A DNA stretch of 64,000 bases, taken from assembly GCA_049325255.1 (NCBI GenBank), contig JBMOMW010000026.1:7646-71645 (forward strand). Reading direction: 5' to 3'. The DNA is from Pseudomonadota bacterium (GTDB taxonomy: Bacteria; Pseudomonadota; Alphaproteobacteria; UBA11222). Below the pieces are notes generated by a model. The model searched no databases and was not told the origin of the DNA. It worked only from the letters and a program-made list of their open reading frames with translations. Below, piece by piece: positions 5,602 to 60,922 of the stretch; the stretch's first letter is position 1; each line of letters starts with the position of its first letter. The position numbers and the translations under genes were made by a program.

Positions 5602-7677
5602 ATGTCCCGTAAAACCCCACTCGAACATTACCGTAATATCGGCATTATGGCGCATATTGACGCCGGAAAGACGACGACGACGGAACGTATCCTGTATTAT
5701 ACCGGGGTCAGCCACAAGATCGGCGAAGTGCATGAAGGCGCGGCGACGATGGACTGGATGGAGCAGGAACAGGAACGCGGCATCACCATTACTTCGGCGG
5801 CCACAACCTGCTTCTGGCGCGACTATCGCATCAATATTATCGACACCCCCGGCCATGTGGATTTTACCATTGAAGTAGAGCGCAGTCTGCGCGTGCTTGA
5901 TGGCGCGGTGGCGGTGTTTGACTCGGTTGCCGGTGTTGAGCCGCAATCCGAAACCGTCTGGCGTCAGGCCGACAAATATAGTGTTCCGCGCATTTGCTTC
6001 GTGAACAAGATGGATCGTATCGGCGCGGATTTCTATCGCTGCGTCGAAATGATCAAGGACCGTCTGGGCGCCATTCCGGCGGTGCTGCAATTGCCGATCG
6101 GATCGGAATCCGCGTTTGTCGGCGTTGTCGATCTGCTGAATAACCGGGCCATCATCTGGAAAGATGAAAGCCTTGGCGCCGAATTTGAATATGTCGCAAT
6201 TCCCGCCGACATGGCGGACGAAGCTGCCGACTATCGCGCCCAACTGGTTGAGCTGGTGGTTGAACAGGATGAAGCCGCACTCGAAGCCTATCTTGAAGGC
6301 ACGGAACCCAGCGTGGAAGCATTACTGGCCTGTATCCGCAAGGGTACTGTTGGCGGCAAGTTCGTTCCGGTAATTTGTGGCTCCGCGTTCAAGAACAAGG
6401 GCGTGCAGACATTGCTGGATGCGGCCGTTGATTTTCTGCCCTCGCCTCTGGATGTTCCCTTTATCCAGGGTACCGTGCCGGATTCGGACGAAGTCGTAGA
6501 ACGTCGCCCCGATGATGCAGAGCCAGTAGCGGCCCTTGCATTCAAGGTAATGAATGATCCGTTTGTGGGCTCGCTGACATTCGTGCGGCTTTATTCCGGT
6601 ACGCTGGAAGCGGGCATGACGGTGCTGAATTCGCGCCGCGGCCATCGCGAACGGATTGGCCGGATGCTGCAAATGCATGCGGACAAGCGCGAAGAAGTCA
6701 AGACAGCAGTTGCTGGTGATATTGTGGCGCTGGCAGGTCTGAAAAACACTATTACCGGTGATACGCTTTGCGATACGGTCAAGGTGGCCATCCTGGAAAG
6801 CATGGAATTCCCGGACCCGGTTATCGAAGTGGCTGTCGAACCAAAGACAAAAGCCGATCAGGAAAAAATGGGCGTCGCGCTCAATCGGCTGGCCCAGGAA
6901 GACCCTTCCTTCCGCGTCTCCAGCGATCCGGAATCCGGCCAGACCATCATCAAGGGCATGGGCGAACTGCATCTCGATATTATCGTTGATCGCATGCGCC
7001 GCGAGTTCAAGGTTGAAGCGAATGTAGGCGCGCCGCAGGTGGCGTATCGCGAAACAATTAACAAGACTGTCGAGGTCGATTACACCCACAAAAAGCAGAC
7101 CGGTGGTTCGGGTCAGTTTGCCCGCATCAAGATTCGTCTGGAACCGTTGGAGCCAGGTGGCGGCGAGCATTTCGAAAACAAGGTTGTCGGCGGTTCGGTG
7201 CCGCGTGAATATGTGCCCGGCGTCGAGAAGGGTGTTATGAGCGTGAAGGATAGCGGCGTTCTCGCTGGTTTTCCGGTTATCGATTTTCAGGTCACGTTGC
7301 TCGATGGCGCCAGCCATGACGTGGACTCCAGCGTGCTGGCGTTTGAAATTGCGGCGCGCGCTGCGTTCCGTGAAGCAGTGCAAAAGGCCGATCCGAAATT
7401 GCTTGAACCAATCATGCGGGTCGAAGTGGTGACGCCGGAAGATTATATGGGCGACGTGATCGGCGATCTGAACAGCCGCCGTGGCCAGATTGGCGGTACG
7501 GAATCGCGCGGCAATGCCGCCGTCATCAAGGCGATGGTGCCGCTCGCCAACATGTTTGGCTATGTGAACAATTTGCGCTCCATGAGCCAGGGACGCGCGC
7601 AATACACAATGCACTTTGACCACTATGAAGCCGTGCCGCAGCACGTTTCGGCAGAGGTCATTGCAAAACTGGCGTAA
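5602..7677 (+). CDS. fusA: elongation factor G
   Basis: 691-aa ORF. GTPase motifs AHIDAGKTT and DTPGHVDF. Conserved str-operon position. Confidence 0.95.
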
Positions 7678-54788: not shown

Positions 54789-56159
54789 ATGACTGCCCGG
54801 GTATTGGTAGTTGATGATGTTCCAGCGAACGTAAAGCTGCTCGAAGCAAAGCTGAGCGCGGAATATTACGAAGTCATTACTGCGGTCAACGGCCAGCAGG
54901 CGATAGAAGTCGCCGAGGCCGAGATGCCGGATATTATTTTGCTTGATGTGATGATGCCCGTAATGGATGGCTTTACGGCATGCCGCAAGCTGAAGGAAAA
55001 CAGCCGGCTTCGCCATATACCGGTTATCATGATCACGGCGCTGGATCAGCCGTCTGACCGGGTGCAGGGCCTGTTGGCCGGCGCTGATGATTTTATCAGC
55101 AAGCCCATAAGGAACAATCCGCTTTTTCCGCGCGTTCGAAGCCTGATCCGGTTGAAAATGATGACCGATGAATTGCGCGCGCGCGATATCACGGGACAGA
55201 ATCTTGGCTTGATGGATTTGCCCAACTGGGAAGATGGCGGTGACATTAAGGGACGCATCCTGATTGTGGATGATCAGGCGCGCTCCAGTGCGCGCATTAG
55301 CGGCGCGCTTAATGAAGGGGGGCACAACGCCCAGGTCGTGGATGATTCCGCTGAGGCCTTGCGGCTTGCCAAGGGCGGGGCTTTTGATTTGATCATCGTC
55401 AGCCTGTCCATGCGTAATTATGATGGCCTGCGGCTATGTTCACAGTTCCGTACGGCGGAAGAAACCAGGACCGTCCCGCTGCTGATCATCGTCGAGGATC
55501 CCGAGGATAGCCGTCTGGCGCGCGGGCTTGATATGGGCATTAATGATTATCTCGTGCGCCCAATTGAAAGCAATGAGCTGTTCGCACGGGTGCGCACTCA
55601 GTTGCGCTGGCACAGATACGAAGAAAAGCTGCGCCACAATCTGCATCTTAGTTTGCAGATGGCGGTTACGGACGCTTTGACCGGATTATATAACCGGCGC
55701 TATATGGAAACCCATCTTCAGATACTGACGCAGCGCGCAAAGCAGGAAGACCGGCCAATATCGCTGCTGATGATCGATATCGATTTCTTCAAAAATATCA
55801 ACGATGCGCATGGCCATGATGCAGGCGACAAGATTTTGAAGCAGTTTTCAGCCGGAATTTCACGCAATATCCGTGGCATTGACCTGGCCTGCCGGTTCGG
55901 CGGCGAGGAGTTTGTAGTCATCATGCCAGAAACGGACATGGCGATCGCATCACTGGTTGCAGAACGAATTCGTCAGTACACAGAAACATTTTCTTTTGAT
56001 GTTGGCGCCGAGAACCCGGTGGCGATGACGGCCAGCATCGGCGTTACCAGCCTGATCGGAAATGGTGATACGCCGGAGACTATCCTGAAGCGGGCCGACG
56101 ACGCGCTGTACCGCGCCAAGAACGATGGCCGCAACCGGGTCAGCGAGCATATAGGCTGA
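54789..56159 (+). CDS. pleD: response regulator diguanylate cyclase PleD (REC-REC-GGDEF)
   Basis: 456-aa ORF with two receiver domains plus GGEEF with I-site RGID. Directly downstream of divK, as in the divK-pleD operon. Confidence 0.9.
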   Translation: MTARVLVVDDVPANVKLLEAKLSAEYYEVITAVNGQQAIEVAEAEMPDIILLDVMMPVMDGFTACRKLKENSRLRHIPVIMITALDQPSDRVQGLLAGADDFISKPIRNNPLFPRVRSLIRLKMMTDELRARDITGQNLGLMDLPNWEDGGDIKGRILIVDDQARSSARISGALNEGGHNAQVVDDSAEALRLAKGGAFDLIIVSLSMRNYDGLRLCSQFRTAEETRTVPLLIIVEDPEDSRLARGLDMGINDYLVRPIESNELFARVRTQLRWHRYEEKLRHNLHLSLQMAVTDALTGLYNRRYMETHLQILTQRAKQEDRPISLLMIDIDFFKNINDAHGHDAGDKILKQFSAGISRNIRGIDLACRFGGEEFVVIMPETDMAIASLVAERIRQYTETFSFDVGAENPVAMTASIGVTSLIGNGDTPETILKRADDALYRAKNDGRNRVSEHIG

Positions 56160-56183: not shown

Positions 56184-56525
56184 CTAGTGATCCGCCCCAT
56201 GTAAAATCTTGTGGCGCAATCCTGTGTCATAGGCGATGCCCGCCGGGCTTAATGTAATGGATTGCGGATAGGCCGATTGCGCCAGCGATTTGCGCTCCAG
56301 CGCCTTCCAGACCATTTCATTCGATAATCCGGTCGCGTCGGAGGCGCGCACGGCGGCCTGGCCGATATGGAAATGATCGCCGTGGAGCTGGGGCAGCCGG
56401 CTGATCTGAAAACCGCCATCTTCCAGCGCTGTTCCAGCCTCGGGGTGGCGCGCCAGTTCCTGCAACAGAGTCAGGGTTTTCAATTGTAGCATATTGAGAT
56501 TAAGCGGGTTGGACTTTGGCGGCAT
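56184..56525 (-). CDS. hypothetical protein
   Basis: 113-aa ORF convergent with pleD. No recognisable motif. Confidence 0.3.
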   Translation of the reverse strand: MPPKSNPLNLNMLQLKTLTLLQELARHPEAGTALEDGGFQISRLPQLHGDHFHIGQAAVRASDATGLSNEMVWKALERKSLAQSAYPQSITLSPAGIAYDTGLRHKILHGADH

Positions 56526-56665: not shown

Positions 56666-57220
56666 ATGCGCCTGTCAAAACCGCGTATCACGCCATTGCC
56701 GGAATCCGAATTGACAGAGGAGCAGCTCAAGATAGTTGCGCCCATGAAGCAGCGCTACGGCTTTGTTTTTAATGTATTGAAGACCATGATGCGAAACATG
56801 AATCTGTTGAACTCCTGGAATGGTTTTGCGGGGCATATTATGGGGACATCCTCGCTTAGCCCGCGCCACCGTGAAATGCTGATCATGCGGGTGGGTTGGC
56901 TGACCCAGTCGGAATATGAATGGGGCCAGCATGTGCTGATGAGCGCCCCGGCGGGCCTGGTGCATGCCGATCATTTGCGCATCAAGGAAGGCCCCAAAGC
57001 CGCTGGCTGGAACGAGCTGGAAAGCGCCCTGCTACAGGCAACCGATGAATTGCTGGACGATGCGATCATCGAGGATGCGACATGGAATATCCTGACGAAA
57101 CATCTGAGTACGGAACAGATCATGGATGCCGTGTTTACCGTCGGCCAATATAATATGCTGGCCATGGCGCTGAACACGCTGGGTGTGCAACGCGAGGAAG
57201 GTGTTCCAGGATTTCCCTGA
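56666..57220 (+). CDS. carboxymuconolactone decarboxylase (AhpD-like) family protein
   Basis: 184-aa all-helical ORF with a CMD-like core. Confidence 0.6.
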   Translation: MRLSKPRITPLPESELTEEQLKIVAPMKQRYGFVFNVLKTMMRNMNLLNSWNGFAGHIMGTSSLSPRHREMLIMRVGWLTQSEYEWGQHVLMSAPAGLVHADHLRIKEGPKAAGWNELESALLQATDELLDDAIIEDATWNILTKHLSTEQIMDAVFTVGQYNMLAMALNTLGVQREEGVPGFP

Positions 57221-57309
57221 AGGCGTAGCGTATTTTGTGTTCGCTGGATAGCTTGATCAATTGGCGCGGGCGGGGTATTACCTTATCCCTGTCCCGCCAT
57301 ATGCCTTAA

Positions 57310-57385
57310 GTCCCCCTCGTCTAGTGGCCCAGGACGTCGCCCTCTCACGGCGAAAACAGGGGTTCGAGTCCCCTGGGGGACGCCA
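57310..57385 (+). tRNA. tRNA-Glu (anticodon CUC)
   Basis: 76 nt ending CCA. Acceptor stem GTCCCCC/GGGGGAC, anticodon stem TCGCC/GGCGA with loop CTCTCAC. Near-identical backbone to E. coli tRNA-Glu. Confidence 0.85.
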
Positions 57386-57506
57386 TCTGTAGGCGACCTG
57401 ACTATGCCGTAGCGAAACTGGCGCTTCGCTACAAAAGAAATCTCCGGATTTGTCAAAAGCTTTGCGATTTGGGGGTGCTGAAATATAGTGTCCGCAAGGC
57501 CGGAGC

Positions 57507-57803
57507 ATGAAAAACAGAAACCTTGCCATAATTCTCTCCCTTGCCGTCTTCATCGCCGCACAGGCGCTGGGGATTGTGCATGCGGCTGCGTATGGGCCGG
57601 GCAAGCATAAGCATCATGGTCAGGTCTGCGATATTTATCTTTCCACGGATCAGGCGAAGTCCGCCGCGCCCCCGCCGTCGCCAGTTCTGCATGTTCCTGG
57701 CCATAGCGGCTTCGCATTTGTTCTGCCCGTTTCCATTGTGCTTCCGGGCGAAGAATATCCTTCGGCCTTTCCCCGCGCGCCGCCTGCCACTCTCCTTAGC
57801 TAG
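57507..57803 (+). CDS. small secreted His-rich protein (possible periplasmic metal-binding, CzcI/DUF2946-like)
   Basis: 98-aa ORF with signal peptide and GKHKHHGQVC and HVPGHSGF motifs. AAGG 7 nt upstream of the ATG. Confidence 0.4.
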   Translation: MKNRNLAIILSLAVFIAAQALGIVHAAAYGPGKHKHHGQVCDIYLSTDQAKSAAPPPSPVLHVPGHSGFAFVLPVSIVLPGEEYPSAFPRAPPATLLS

Positions 57804-57872
57804 CAAACCATTTTGATCGTAACGCCCCTTCGCGCCCCGCGCGATGGGTGTTTGCTTATCCTCAAGGAGAAT

Positions 57873-59228
57873 ATGATGCGAAACCCATCTTTCGCAGCTT
57901 CGGCTGCGCTCAGCTTGCTATTCAGCCCCCCTGCTTTTGCCGCGTCCGATAGAGAGATCGAGGCCGTAAAAGCGGAAATCCAGTCCATGCGGCAAACCTA
58001 TGAAAGCCGCATCGCGGAACTGGAATCGAAACTTGCGAAAATTGAAAACCAGAACCCCGCCGGGCAACAGGCCGCAGCGCCAGCGCCCGCATCCGCGCGT
58101 GAATCAGCCCGCAATATCCGTGATAACAGCTTTAATCCCTCCATCGGTCTGATCCTCAACGGCAAATATAGCGGCTTTTCCGAGGACAATTCCGCATTTG
58201 CCGGATTTGCCGTTGGCGAAGAAGGGGAGCGAGGAAAGCAGGGTTTTGGGATTGATGAATCCGAGTTCAACTTTTCCTCGAATGTGGATGACAAATTCTA
58301 TGGCAGCGTCACAGCGGCCATCGTCCGCGAAGGGGGCGAGGACAAGATCGAACTGGAGGAGGCCTATGTCCAGACCTTGCCCGGCATGGGGCTGCCCAAG
58401 GGCATGAATGTAAAGGCCGGGCGGGCGCTTTGGACACTGGGTTATCTGAATGAGCATCATGCTCACACGGATGATTTCGCGGACCGGCCATTGCCCTATC
58501 GCGTCTTTCTGAACAGCGCATTCAATGATGACGGGGTGGAGCTTTCCTATGTGCTGCCCACAAACTTCTATTCCGAGATCGGTGGCGGCTTCTTTCGCGG
58601 CGACGATTATCCGTTTGGCGGCGCAAGCGGTGGCGGTTTCGACGCCTGGTCCGCCTTTGCCCGGATCGGCGGCGATATTGGTGACAATCAAAGCTGGCGG
58701 CTTGGCGGCTACGCGCTGTCCGGCGATGCGGGCGGGCGCGCCGGGAACGGGGATGCCGTAAACTTTACCGGCGACAGCAATCTGTATGCGGTTGATCTGC
58801 GCTACACATGGGCGCCAACCGGCAATCCGCGCGCGCAGGAAGTGTTGTTGCAGGGCGAATATTTCTGGCGCAGTGAAGACGGCGCCTATGAGGATTTCGG
58901 GGCTGGAACCGGCGCCGTTCCATTCGATGACAACGCCCGGGGATGGTATGCGCAGGGCGTTTACAAGTTTCTGCCGCAATGGCGGATCGGGTACCGTTAT
59001 AGCAGGTTGAAAACGCCGGACGTCCCACTCGGCCTGTTAGGCAGCGCACTGGATTCCGGCGGTTATAATCCGGACGCCCACGCTGTCATGGCCGACTGGA
59101 CGAACAGCGAGTTCAGCCGGGTGCGCCTGCAATATAATCATGAAGAGCTGACGCGGGGGCAAAACGATGATCAGATCATTTTGCAATATATCATGAGCAT
59201 CGGCGCCCATGGCGCGCATAAATACTGA
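57873..59228 (+). CDS. outer-membrane beta-barrel (porin-like) protein with N-terminal coiled-coil segment and His-rich patches
   Basis: ORF 57813..59228. AAGGAGA RBS then ATG 57873 giving the signal peptide MMRNPSFAASAALSLLFSPPAFA. Heptad-like EIEAVKAEIQSMRQTYESRIAELESKLAKIE. Alternating beta-strand pattern. C-terminal aromatic residue (..HGAHKY). Confidence 0.55.
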   Translation: MMRNPSFAASAALSLLFSPPAFAASDREIEAVKAEIQSMRQTYESRIAELESKLAKIENQNPAGQQAAAPAPASARESARNIRDNSFNPSIGLILNGKYSGFSEDNSAFAGFAVGEEGERGKQGFGIDESEFNFSSNVDDKFYGSVTAAIVREGGEDKIELEEAYVQTLPGMGLPKGMNVKAGRALWTLGYLNEHHAHTDDFADRPLPYRVFLNSAFNDDGVELSYVLPTNFYSEIGGGFFRGDDYPFGGASGGGFDAWSAFARIGGDIGDNQSWRLGGYALSGDAGGRAGNGDAVNFTGDSNLYAVDLRYTWAPTGNPRAQEVLLQGEYFWRSEDGAYEDFGAGTGAVPFDDNARGWYAQGVYKFLPQWRIGYRYSRLKTPDVPLGLLGSALDSGGYNPDAHAVMADWTNSEFSRVRLQYNHEELTRGQNDDQIILQYIMSIGAHGAHKY

Positions 59229-59241
59229 AGGGGGAATGACC

Positions 59242-60153
59242 ATGAAACGCATTCTTCCCCTTATCGTTTTCCTTGGGCTGATGATCGCCGCCCCGCCTGG
59301 TGCGCAGGCAAAAGTCAATCTGTTCGCCTGTGAGCCGGAATGGGCGGCGCTGGCGCGCGAACTGGGCGGTGATGACGTGGAAATATTCACGGCCACCACC
59401 CCCCGGCAAGACCCGCATCATGTGCGCGCCAAGCCCAGCCTGATCGCCGCCATGCGCCGGGCCGATCTGGCCATCTGCACCGGCGCGAGCCTGGAAGTTG
59501 GCTGGTTGCCGATCCTGCTGCAGAAGGCGGGCAACCCCAGCGCCCAGCCGGGCGGCGTGGGTTTGCTGCTTGCAGCGGAGCTTGTTGTGCTGCTGGAAAA
59601 GCCCGCGCGGCTGGATCGTGCGGAAGGTGATATTCACCCTGAAGGCAATCCGCATGTGCACCTCAACCCGCGCAATATTGCGCTGATTGCACAGGCGTTG
59701 ACGGACCGGCTTAAGACAGTTGATGCGGCCAACACCAGATCCTATCAGGCGCGCTTTGATAACTTTGCTGCAAGGTGGCGTGACGCCACGCAACGCTGGG
59801 AACAGCAAGCGGCGGGGCTGAAAGGAACCGCCATTGTAGTGCACCACAAAGCCTTTACTTACCTTCTGGCGTGGCTGGGGATGCAGGAGGCAGGCGTGCT
59901 GGAGGCCAAACCAGGCATTCCCCCAACGGCGTCACATCTGGAAGCGCTGCTGCAAAAACTGGCTTTGAGCCCGGTGCGTCTGATCGTCCGTACACCCTAT
60001 GATCCGGCGGACGCGAGCGATTGGCTTTCGCAAAAAACCGGAGCACCCGCCATTGTTCTGCCGTTTACGGTTGGCGGTGATGCTGGAAGCGGTAACCTGT
60101 TCGCCCTGTTCGACCGCACCATAGCACTGCTGAAGGGCGCCAGCGGTGCTTAG
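59242..60153 (+). CDS. metal ABC transporter substrate-binding protein, ZnuA/TroA (Zn/Mn) family
   Basis: ORF 59209..60153. Likely start MKRILPLIVFLGL at 59242 after a GGGGGA RBS. Metal-site-like DPHHVRAKPS and NPHVHLNP segments. Confidence 0.65.
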   Translation: MKRILPLIVFLGLMIAAPPGAQAKVNLFACEPEWAALARELGGDDVEIFTATTPRQDPHHVRAKPSLIAAMRRADLAICTGASLEVGWLPILLQKAGNPSAQPGGVGLLLAAELVVLLEKPARLDRAEGDIHPEGNPHVHLNPRNIALIAQALTDRLKTVDAANTRSYQARFDNFAARWRDATQRWEQQAAGLKGTAIVVHHKAFTYLLAWLGMQEAGVLEAKPGIPPTASHLEALLQKLALSPVRLIVRTPYDPADASDWLSQKTGAPAIVLPFTVGGDAGSGNLFALFDRTIALLKGASGA

Positions 60154-60922
60154 CGCCGAAATGGCCATGATCATGGCGCCGGCGTTCGTTGCTGGCCTCA
60201 TGATCGCAGTGACCCACGCGCCACTTGGCATTGTGGTGCTTCGGCGGGGCATTATTTTTATTGATCTGGCGATTGCCCAGATTGCAGGGCTTGGCGCAGT
60301 GATGGCAGGTCTGTTCTGGGGCGGGCCGCCATGGTGGATGGTGCAGGGGGCGGCGTTGTCCTGCGCGGTTACGGCTGCTCTTTTTTTCCACCTGGTGGAG
60401 CGTTTTTTGCCGGACCGCCAGGAAGCCATCATCGGGTGCAGTTTTGTAGTGGCTGCGTCAATTGCGATACTGTTGCTGACCGGGCAGCCGCATGGCGATG
60501 AGGCGATGGAACAACTGCTTTCGGGGCAGCTTCTGTTCGTTACCTGGCCGCAAATCGCCCTGCATGCGCCGGTTTATCTGGTCATTCTTGCGCTGTGGTT
60601 TCTGCGCCCGCAAACCCGGCAGGGGGTCTGGTTTTATCTGCTGTTCTCGGCGGCGATCACCTCATCGGTGCAACTGACAGGCGTATTCGTTGTTTTCGCA
60701 AGCCTGATCGCCCCCGCCCTTGGCGCCGTGCGCCATGCCGGAACCCGCCGCGAACTGCTTACGGCGTATGGTATTGCGCTGATTGGGTTGCTGTCTGGCT
60801 TTAGTGTGGCCGTCGGGTATGACCTTCCACTTGGCCCGGTGCTGGTGTGCAGCTTCATGCTGTCAGCACTGTTTGCCGGCGCGTGGCCGTTGAAGCGGGC
60901 CATTTTTGACTCGATTTATTGA
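60146..60922 (+). CDS. metal ABC transporter permease, ZnuB-like (ABC-3 family)
   Basis: 258-aa polytopic membrane ORF overlapping the SBP gene end. No ATPase gene follows. Confidence 0.6.
   Translation: MLSAEMAMIMAPAFVAGLMIAVTHAPLGIVVLRRGIIFIDLAIAQIAGLGAVMAGLFWGGPPWWMVQGAALSCAVTAALFFHLVERFLPDRQEAIIGCSFVVAASIAILLLTGQPHGDEAMEQLLSGQLLFVTWPQIALHAPVYLVILALWFLRPQTRQGVWFYLLFSAAITSSVQLTGVFVVFASLIAPALGAVRHAGTRRELLTAYGIALIGLLSGFSVAVGYDLPLGPVLVCSFMLSALFAGAWPLKRAIFDSIY

Follow-up and report, generated by a model that had tools for sequence, protein, structure and literature searches.

In a 64,000-nucleotide stretch of DNA (hereafter the window; contig JBMOMW010000026.1 of assembly GCA_049325255.1, from an alphaproteobacterium of the UBA11222 lineage) we found a co-directional group of genes that very probably makes up a zinc-uptake cassette. 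The genes encode, in order, a small protein, an outer-membrane porin, a periplasmic binding protein of the ZnuA family and an inner-membrane protein of the ZnuB fold, and there is no gene for an ATP-binding cassette (ABC) ATPase among them. Regulation by a leader peptide, encoded by the first gene, is quite likely; that all three propositions (zinc cassette, leader regulation and independence of an ATPase) hold jointly we consider somewhat better than an even chance. The most far-reaching reading, for which the balance falls just short of even, is that a membrane domain of the ZnuB type has become a zinc channel or ion-coupled carrier that depends on a binding protein but not on ATP, with its own metal-selective porin and a zinc-sensing switch built on the ribosome-arrest motif RAPP. 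The parts taken singly are related to known things, namely the ZnuA/ZnuB fold, the VPA1307 subfamily of binding proteins, RAPP leaders and OprP/DcaP-like porins. The combination of a systematic absence of the ATPase, a deleted coupling helix, a dedicated porin and a putative zinc-sensing arrest peptide is undescribed in the literature that we searched, where full-text searches for ZnuB systems without an ATPase gave no result either.

The features of the cassette are as follows (ORF, open reading frame; SD, Shine-Dalgarno sequence; MFE, minimum free energy; TM, transmembrane helix).

57507..57803, forward strand: putative leader ORF, 98 amino acids (ORF list; family alignment A4)
57579..57629, forward strand: codons H25 to C41 of the putative metal-sensing motif H-x8-H-x-H-x4-C (invariant in A4)
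57774..57785, forward strand: codons of the RAPP ribosome-arrest motif, R90-A91-P92-P93 (sequence and family motif counts)
57791..57797, forward strand: anti-SD UCUCCUU in the last leader codons, 95-97 (complementarity, MFE fold, related loci)
57826..57848, forward strand: GC-rich inner hairpin inside the anti-SD/SD helix (fold and inverted-repeat pair; terminator-like in a simple scan)
57864..57870, forward strand: porin SD AAGGAGA, sequestered by the anti-SD in the predicted fold (sequence, fold, related loci)
57873..59228, forward strand: outer-membrane porin, 451 amino acids, start ATG at 57873 or 57876 (ORF, AlphaFold2 model)
58449..58478, forward strand: codons of NEHHAHTDDF, N193-F202, the His/Asp motif in loop L3 (alignments A1 and A2; strand map of the model)
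59236..60153, forward strand: periplasmic binding protein of the ZnuA family, VPA1307 subfamily (PF01297, 138.8 bits; ligand residues)
60146..60922, forward strand: ZnuB-like (ABC-3 fold) inner-membrane protein, 258 amino acids, without the coupling helix (PF00950, profile, model)
60602..60631, forward strand: codons of the short TM5-TM6 turn, residues 153-162 (MAFFT alignment with ZnuB; model)

The mechanical start of the porin ORF is a TTG at 57813; an SD sequence, AAGGAG, precedes the ATG codons at 57873/57876, where the homologues begin. Taking this start, 69 nt separate the stop codon of the leader ORF from the porin gene on the same strand. The binding protein probably starts at ATG 59236 or 59242, downstream of GAGGGAGG, and not at 59209.

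An earlier note on this DNA, made from the sequence alone, had listed a tRNA-Glu gene, the small ORF with its GKHKHHGQVC and HVPGHSGF motifs, an outer-membrane protein with LNEHHAHTDD and GAHGAHKY, and ZnuA-like and ZnuB-like proteins followed by an unrelated luciferase-like (LLM) oxidoreductase. All of these we recovered at the coordinates given there. In scans with profile hidden Markov models the binding protein matched PF01297 (ZnuA; 2.9e-40, 138.8 bits against a cut-off of 29), the membrane protein matched PF00950 (ABC-3; 1e-16, 61.7 bits against a cut-off of 20.1, the match being broken at profile position 144) and the gene after it matched PF00296.

Conservation and phylogenetic distribution of the cassette

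A scan of one genome per species found the porin in 262 species, and 80 loci were kept, all of them from uncultured or metagenome-assembled genomes; related loci used for comparison are labelled L0xx. The order porin, ZnuA-like protein, ZnuB-like protein is found in every one of the ∼75 related loci with enough flanking sequence, and because the same order recurs in all of them it is not a chance juxtaposition; 74 cassette permeases and 76 cassette binding proteins were compared. Among the 80 scanned loci the porins are 55-94% identical over their full length, and the gene order persists at 29-35% porin identity in L085, Vibrio campbellii and Sulfurovum mangrovi; the NCBI annotation of the last reads 'hypothetical, hypothetical, zinc ABC transporter substrate-binding protein, metal ABC transporter permease'. 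The taxon labels of the cassettes cover Alpha- and Gammaproteobacteria, Nitrospinales, Desulfobulbaceae, Lentisphaeria, Verrucomicrobia, Planctomycetia and Bacteroidota.

Clustering of the flanking ORFs gave no further conserved partner, the best family being present in 9 loci, and TonB/ExbBD, COG0523 and Zur were likewise not found as shared partners in these clusters (9 loci at most). The cassette sits in unrelated genomic contexts, which suggests that it is horizontally mobile as a unit of three or four genes.

One uncultured 'Rickettsiales' assembly holds two copies of the cassette, L012 (CAZPQM010000005.1) with a RAPP leader and L043 (CAZPQM010000006.1) without one. The V. campbellii copy (L086) lies on a 2.06-Mb replicon (NZ_CP050465.1) that is filed as a plasmid and is probably chromosome II.

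Binding protein and metal specificity

The relatives of the binding protein in the PDB are MntA, AdcA and ZnuA, with the Mn-binding MntA (5hx7) as the best sequence match. All 76 cassette binding proteins have His at positions 60, 133, 139 and 203, and 67 of them carry Asp or Glu at position 255; alignment to 5hx7 puts H60, H139, H203 and D/E255 at the ligand positions. A His as the third ligand is typical of the zinc binders ZnuA, TroA and AztC, and a Glu of the Mn and Fe binders (PsaA/MntC). The metal is likely to be zinc because this third ligand is an invariant His and because the protein belongs to the subfamily of VPA1307 from Vibrio parahaemolyticus.

Zinc limitation (TPEN) induces VPA1307, which has been termed a 'novel ZnuA subfamily'; cells need the protein to grow in the presence of TPEN, its function requires H69 and H148, and it contributes to virulence (Liu et al., 2013, PMC3794297). 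Over 270 residues, the binding protein in the window shares 42% identity with the VPA1307 orthologue of V. campbellii; H69 and H148 of VPA1307 are 79 residues apart, as are H60 and H139 of the window protein. According to the primers used for its deletion (PMC3794297), the gene upstream of VPA1307 ends in ...GAHAF* and the one downstream begins with MTEY..., which agrees with how the porin ends and the permease begins in the V. campbellii cassette. The two systems are thus alike in subfamily, in the invariant His residues and in the flanking porin and permease genes, although in Vibrio the porin is without the coiled coil and Zur-box-like sites take the place of a RAPP leader. The paper on VPA1307 covers the binding protein alone and mentions neither the neighbouring genes nor the absence of an ATPase (PMC3794297), and we found no functional discussion of VPA1306 or VPA1308 in the literature searched.

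The earlier note had recognized no Zur box upstream of the genes by eye, and a scan of the window for the gamma-type Zur box TGTTATAWTATAACA with up to 3 mismatches agreed in giving no match; this check covered the gamma-type consensus and is not exhaustive for alphaproteobacterial Zur or Mur sites. In V. campbellii (L086, about 5860-5935) two Zur-box-like palindromes, TGTTATGCTATAACA and TGTTATAACATAACA, stand directly upstream of the porin gene.

That the substrate is another metal (Mn, Fe, Cu, Ni or Co), or that the system exports or buffers metal instead of importing zinc, is improbable. Such a role would accord with the presence of Mn and Fe binders in the ZnuA family, MntA among them as the best match, with the copper sensing of the characterized RAPP metal leaders and with the fact that the closest solved fold to the porin is an anion channel, OprP. 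Yet the third ligand is not the Glu of the Mn/Fe type, the orthologous VPA1307 responds to zinc chelation and is needed under it, Zur-box-like sites precede the Vibrio copy, and the best NCBIfam matches of the cassette proteins are the zinc proteins AztC and AztB, both far below threshold. The earlier note had proposed an envelope-spanning import route for Zn or Mn: envelope-spanning metal uptake stands, and of the two metals zinc is favoured.

A ZnuB-like permease without the coupling helix

A single-sequence search of the PDB with the permease gave no match; a family profile was required, and the profile of the cassette permeases matched Escherichia coli ZnuB (PDB 9oko) at an E-value of 4.6e-11, leaving ZnuB residues 144-158 unmatched. 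The NCBIfam match of the permease breaks at the same place as the Pfam match. When the 74 permeases were aligned by MAFFT to ZnuB of E. coli, they had 12-17 residues (13 in 65 permeases) to set against the 32 of ZnuB 141-172; all 74 have lost 15-20 residues, which in ZnuB make up the coupling helix and the part of TM5 that reaches the cytosol. In ZnuB, TM5 reaches into the cytosol and is followed by the coupling helix α2 (154-162), the main contact of the ZnuC Q-loop (PMC12236471).

The AlphaFold2 model of the permease (predicted local distance difference test score, pLDDT, 91.8) keeps the nine helices and the periplasmic α1, and joins TM5 (134-153) to TM6 (160-178) by a four-residue turn at 155-158. 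Foldseek placed PsaC (7kyp; TM-score 0.72) among the top matches of the model, along with BhuU, HI1471 and BtuC. Mutagenesis of ZnuB has shown that the cavity residues D36 and H40 of TM2 matter. In the column of H40 all 74 permeases have Gln, and the column of D36 is occupied by Leu, with an invariant Asp (D40) one column earlier; other invariant or near-invariant polar residues of the permeases are H24, E85, E93, H116, E119, Q128 and H140.

Compared with ZnuABC and PsaABC (ABC-3, cluster A-I), the cassette shares a ZnuA-family binding protein with His-rich metal ligands, the nine-helix ZnuB/PsaC fold with periplasmic α1, and a function in zinc uptake. It differs in having no ATPase gene, in the deletion of the coupling helix, in the invariant Gln in place of ZnuB His40, in the dedicated porin within the operon and, in most lineages, in an apparent control by a leader peptide instead of Zur. 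Conceptual precedents can be found in the TRAP and TTT systems, whose binding-protein-dependent uptake is driven by ion gradients, and in BtuM, a solitary S-component of the energy-coupling factor (ECF) type, which belongs to an ATP-driven family and works without its ATPase. Their folds are unrelated, and no homology is claimed.

Absence of an ABC ATPase

The earlier note had remarked that no ATPase gene is present, and this holds throughout the window: the LSGGQ-type ABC signature was found in no ORF of more than 150 amino acids, and the only two Walker A matches both lack the signature. An overlooked or fused ATPase was considered and rejected, as there is no signature in the long ORFs and the permease has no extra domain in its 258 residues. 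We then searched flanks of ±10 kb at the related loci for Walker A, signature and Walker B motifs, followed by iterated jackhmmer searches seeded with the ATPases found by motif. This gave 9 ABC ATPase ORFs over 84 loci, none adjoining the cassette or co-oriented within it; the nearest are more than 1 kb off or on the opposite strand. The closest of them (∼240 amino acids; L039 6820-7536, L061 7802-8518 and L041 542-1264) lie 1.3-2.3 kb upstream of the porin gene, two on the opposite strand, and are probably unrelated housekeeping ATPases.

The absence, which the earlier note took for a possible unusual arrangement, is real, but it is no oddity of one locus: it is systematic across the ∼75 loci. 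The other explanation offered there, an ATPase shared with another system, would make this an ordinary ABC importer served in trans by an ATPase (ZnuC or a relative) whose gene lies elsewhere. The binding and membrane proteins are, after all, clear members of PF01297 and PF00950, and some sugar importers among the ABC systems are known to share an ATPase; V. parahaemolyticus, moreover, presumably also carries a canonical znuABC. We nevertheless regard sharing in trans as unlikely because the coupling helix on which ZnuC would dock is lost and no locus has an adjacent ATPase. ZnuB residues 144-158 are absent and α2 has no counterpart in 74 of 74 family members, the missing gene contrasts with canonical ABC-3 operons, which normally encode one, and a cassette that seems to cross phyla as a unit would be parted from any specific partner.

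A decaying, non-functional remnant of znuABC that has lost znuC is hardly credible. Its appeal lies in the missing ATPase and the deletion in the permease, and it is already contradicted by conservation: the components are strongly conserved across phyla, the porins as closely as stated above, many permease residues are invariant and 65 of the 74 permeases share a deletion of one and the same length. No frameshifts interrupt the cassette genes of the window, and the phenotype of the VPA1307 deletion bespeaks function. The coupling helix is lost and the ATPase gene is missing from every locus; from these two findings we infer, and do not demonstrate, that the permease operates without ATP hydrolysis by a partner, which appears reasonably probable.

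The outer-membrane porin

Homologues of the porin number in the thousands and are unnamed, the closest being 60-90% identical to it. Searched exhaustively, the cluster representatives yielded 2,482 matches at E≤0.001 and 278 at E≤1e-30; divergent homologues, when looked up by cluster, bore only the name 'hypothetical protein', and one UniRef homologue was labelled 'Phosphate-selective porin O and P'. The porin matched no Pfam family at E≤0.01, Porin_O_P (PF07396) included.

In the AlphaFold2 model (pLDDT 90.2) a signal peptide is followed by a helix (26-60), a disordered linker and a 16-strand barrel; the helix is, by this prediction, a periplasmic coiled coil. The segment NEHHxHxDDF (193-202) falls in a 31-residue loop between strands 5 and 6 of the model, which by its position is loop L3. 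Residues N193, H196, H198, D200, D201 and F202 are invariant in alignment A1, and in alignment A2, with 77 sequences down to 31% identity, N193, H196, H198 and F202 are conserved in at least 90%, as are H446 and H449 of the C-terminal GAHGAHKY.

The modelled fold is a 16-strand porin barrel like that of the phosphate porins OprP/OprO and of DcaP from Acinetobacter baumannii. The cassette porin differs from these in that identity is 13-17%, there is no Porin_O_P match and its gene lies in a zinc-uptake operon; and the conserved residues of its pore loop are His, Asp and Glu and not an anion ladder. These pore-loop residues indicate selectivity for cations or metals rather than for anions. A metal-selective, TonB-independent channel would be the natural reading of the modelled porin.

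The putative leader peptide

Ribosome arrest at RAPP motifs has been described before (PMC10951233, PMC12992588, PMC9426467). In CruR of Bordetella pertussis, where a CxxC motif lies 45 ± 2 residues from RAPP, a TonB-dependent uptake gene stays on as long as the ribosome is arrested, and copper lifts the arrest (PMC9426467). In CutF of Rhodobacter capsulatus, copper prolongs stalling, and this melts a stem-loop that hides the SD of the next gene. A 2025 survey placed RAPP/RGPP upstream ORFs (uORFs) ahead of genes for TonB-dependent receptors, YcnI, PCuAC and PepSY proteins and mentions neither zinc nor ZnuA (PMC12992588); the porin, ZnuA and ZnuB-like genes are absent from the published surveys of RAPP-leader neighbours.

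The 98-residue protein at the head of the cassette is, judging by its sequence, most likely an arrest leader of this CruR/CutF type and not a chaperone. A uORF with a RAPP-like end stands ahead of the porin gene at 61 of the 74 loci with enough upstream sequence, the ends being RAPP in 50, RGPP in 7, RSPP in 2, and RGSP and HAPP in 1 each. Conservation is limited to a hydrophobic N-terminus, a signal or anchor segment, with Q19, the residues H25, H34, H36 and C41, and the C-terminal R90-A-P-P93; Q19, the four putative metal ligands, P92 and P93 are invariant in A4, and R90 nearly so. Between the Cys and the Arg of RAPP the sequence is freely variable and its length is 47-50 residues in 56 of the 61 unique leaders. 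The stop codon comes 5 residues after RAPP in the window and 2-6 residues after it across the family.

Like CruR and CutF, the protein is encoded by a small uORF heading a metal-homeostasis operon, has an N-terminal export signal and carries a Cys/His motif ∼45-50 residues from a C-terminal RAPP, with the stop a few codons on. The SD of the gene that follows is predicted to be held in a stem, as it is with CutF, and as in CruR the controlled genes serve uptake. It differs from both in that the motif is H-x8-H-x-H-x4-C and not CxxC or CxxxC, in that the likely ligand is zinc and not copper, and in that the leader's own final codons contain the anti-SD. No Pfam family matched the window protein. 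DUF2946 (PF11162), too, failed to match it and was matched weakly by 1 of 18 members (E 0.0085), as was DUF2607 (weakly, 1 of 18); since DUF2946 is not reached at threshold, the leader represents a divergent subfamily. Some leaders (L062, L072, L078, L015, L087) carry CxxC-type motifs (HECPECLL, ETECFLCV, GGCQVCK) in place of HxH...C, and that of Sulfurovum ends in HAPP; these variants may differ in metal specificity or in strength of arrest.

The earlier note had seen in this ORF a periplasmic, His-rich metal carrier. Stated in full, it would be a stable periplasmic or membrane-anchored zinc chaperone, or a metallophore-like carrier from the porin to the binding protein, with RAPP being incidental, an idea that is attractive for the hydrophobic N-terminus, the conserved His and Cys residues and the position of the gene, co-directional with the transport genes and conserved beside them. 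We consider it improbable. Only the sensing motif and R-A-P-P are conserved whereas the ∼48 residues between them vary at a fixed length, the last codons form an anti-SD that covaries with the porin SD, the characterized relatives CruR and CutF act in cis and either escape detection or are quickly broken down, and the Vibrio cassette works without such a protein. A cis-acting RAPP leader with an anti-SD/SD switch explains these features better, and control by a leader peptide would also account for the lack of a Zur box.

A predicted anti-SD/SD switch

The anti-SD UCUCCUU is 100% complementary to AAGGAGA of the porin SD, and the MFE fold of this region pairs the two around the GC-rich hairpin (z = -2.48; 1 of 200 shuffles as stable). 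The pairing was compared at 59 non-redundant loci, taking the anti-SD zone after RAPP against the SD zone. The duplex has a median of -11.8 kcal/mol, versus -5.3 for both the shuffled anti-SD and an upstream control, and is equalled by 5 or fewer of 200 shuffles at 43 of the 59 loci; at 52 of them the MFE fold pairs at least 5 nucleotides of the SD zone with the anti-SD zone. Matched variants of SD and anti-SD include GGAG/CUCC, GGAA/UUCC, AAGAGG/CCUCUU and UAGGUUAA/UUAACCUA, so that the predicted pairing is conserved with compensatory changes across taxa. The location of the anti-SD in the last codons explains why the leaders end in conserved ...FS* and ...LLS*.

The Pro92 codon occupies 57780-57782. 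With Pro92 in the P site the anti-SD starts 11 nt downstream, that is, at or within the mRNA entry channel of the ribosome, and a stalled ribosome should therefore hold the SD open. GC-rich hairpins like that at 57826-57848 are nested inside the anti-SD/SD helix in most related loci; they might add a layer of transcription attenuation or merely stabilize the closed state.

Proposed mechanism

Zinc would cross the outer membrane through the porin, be captured by the binding protein and be delivered to a dimer of the ZnuB-like protein, which would act as a binding-protein-gated channel or as a secondary carrier. Transport would be driven by the membrane potential, possibly protons, and the extremely low free zinc of the cytosol, and not by ATP. 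By analogy with CruR and CutF, the leader would be translated, its N-terminus would insert into the membrane and the ribosome would stall at RAPP, its P site occupied by Pro92 and its A site by Pro93, covering the anti-SD and freeing the SD of the porin gene. When zinc is plentiful, the His25/His34/His36/Cys41 motif would bind it, fold and release the arrest; the ribosome would then terminate, the anti-SD/SD helix would re-form and the uptake genes would be switched off.

Several points weigh against this picture. Release of zinc from a high-affinity binding protein without an ATP-driven stroke has no explanation, and D36 and H40, important residues of ZnuB, are not strictly kept in the permease family. 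The ATPase search spanned the window and the flanks, and an ATPase encoded elsewhere in the genome is possible; given the presumed canonical znuABC of V. parahaemolyticus, the VPA1307 phenotype is no proof of ATPase independence. The leader falls short of the Pfam threshold for DUF2946, and 11 of the 74 loci as well as the Vibrio copy have no such leader. The direction of the switch, with zinc releasing the arrest, is taken from CruR, whereas CutF works oppositely. In this lineage, the evidence on transport, arrest and expression is computational.

If true, a ZnuB-like protein that dispenses with the ATPase would overturn the assumption that the membrane domains of type II ABC importers need a nucleotide-binding partner, show a route from a primary transporter to a channel or secondary carrier, and add a new class of binding-protein-dependent transporter beside ABC, TRAP and TTT. 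The leader would, likewise, be the first zinc-responsive ribosome-arrest leader, metal-sensing arrest being so far known for copper, and its anti-SD switch is unusually clear and easily testable. The porin is a candidate for a TonB-independent, metal-selective outer-membrane channel. The cassette is very common in uncultured aquatic Alphaproteobacteria and occurs in other phyla, and it may be a major route for zinc in zinc-poor waters. In V. parahaemolyticus it adjoins a pathogenicity island, and its binding protein aids both growth under zinc chelation and virulence.

Genomic neighbourhood and minor sequence features

Two further features precede the cassette.

57310-57385, forward strand: tRNA-Glu(CUC) (Rfam match)
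57462..57489, forward strand: candidate sigma-70-type promoter, TTGCGA / 16 nt / TATAGT (consensus scan only; 9/12 matches, weak)

The earlier note had treated adjacency to the tRNA as a feature of the locus. It proved incidental, being absent from ten related loci, the closest relatives included. A genomic island inserted at the tRNA was considered and rejected, as the adjacency is not kept in those ten loci and the GC content is unremarkable; we found no compositional anomaly at the locus. An Rfam scan of 57200-58000 gave the tRNA only and hence neither a riboswitch nor any further known RNA.

At 57409-57432 in the window, 24 nt past tRNA-Glu, lies an inverted repeat with perfect 8-bp arms, GTAGCGAA-N8-TTCGCTAC; it is followed by AAAAGAAA and hence by no U-tract, and could be a hairpin for tRNA 3' processing or termination, or a protein-binding site. 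An imperfect inverted repeat of 11 nt, CTCCGGATTTG / CAAGGCCGGAG (57442-57452 / 57495-57505), could pair the ribosome-binding region of the leader with sequence upstream, the relevance of which hangs on the transcription start.

Just upstream of the tRNA are two ORFs with no evident tie to the cassette: a 113-residue ORF at 56184-56525 on the reverse strand, without a family match, and, at 56666-57220 on the forward strand, a CMD/peroxidase-related protein (PF02627, TIGR01926-like). A 456-residue ORF at 54789-56159, with a GGEEF motif at its end, has, from its translation, the look of a response regulator of the diguanylate-cyclase type (PleD-like).

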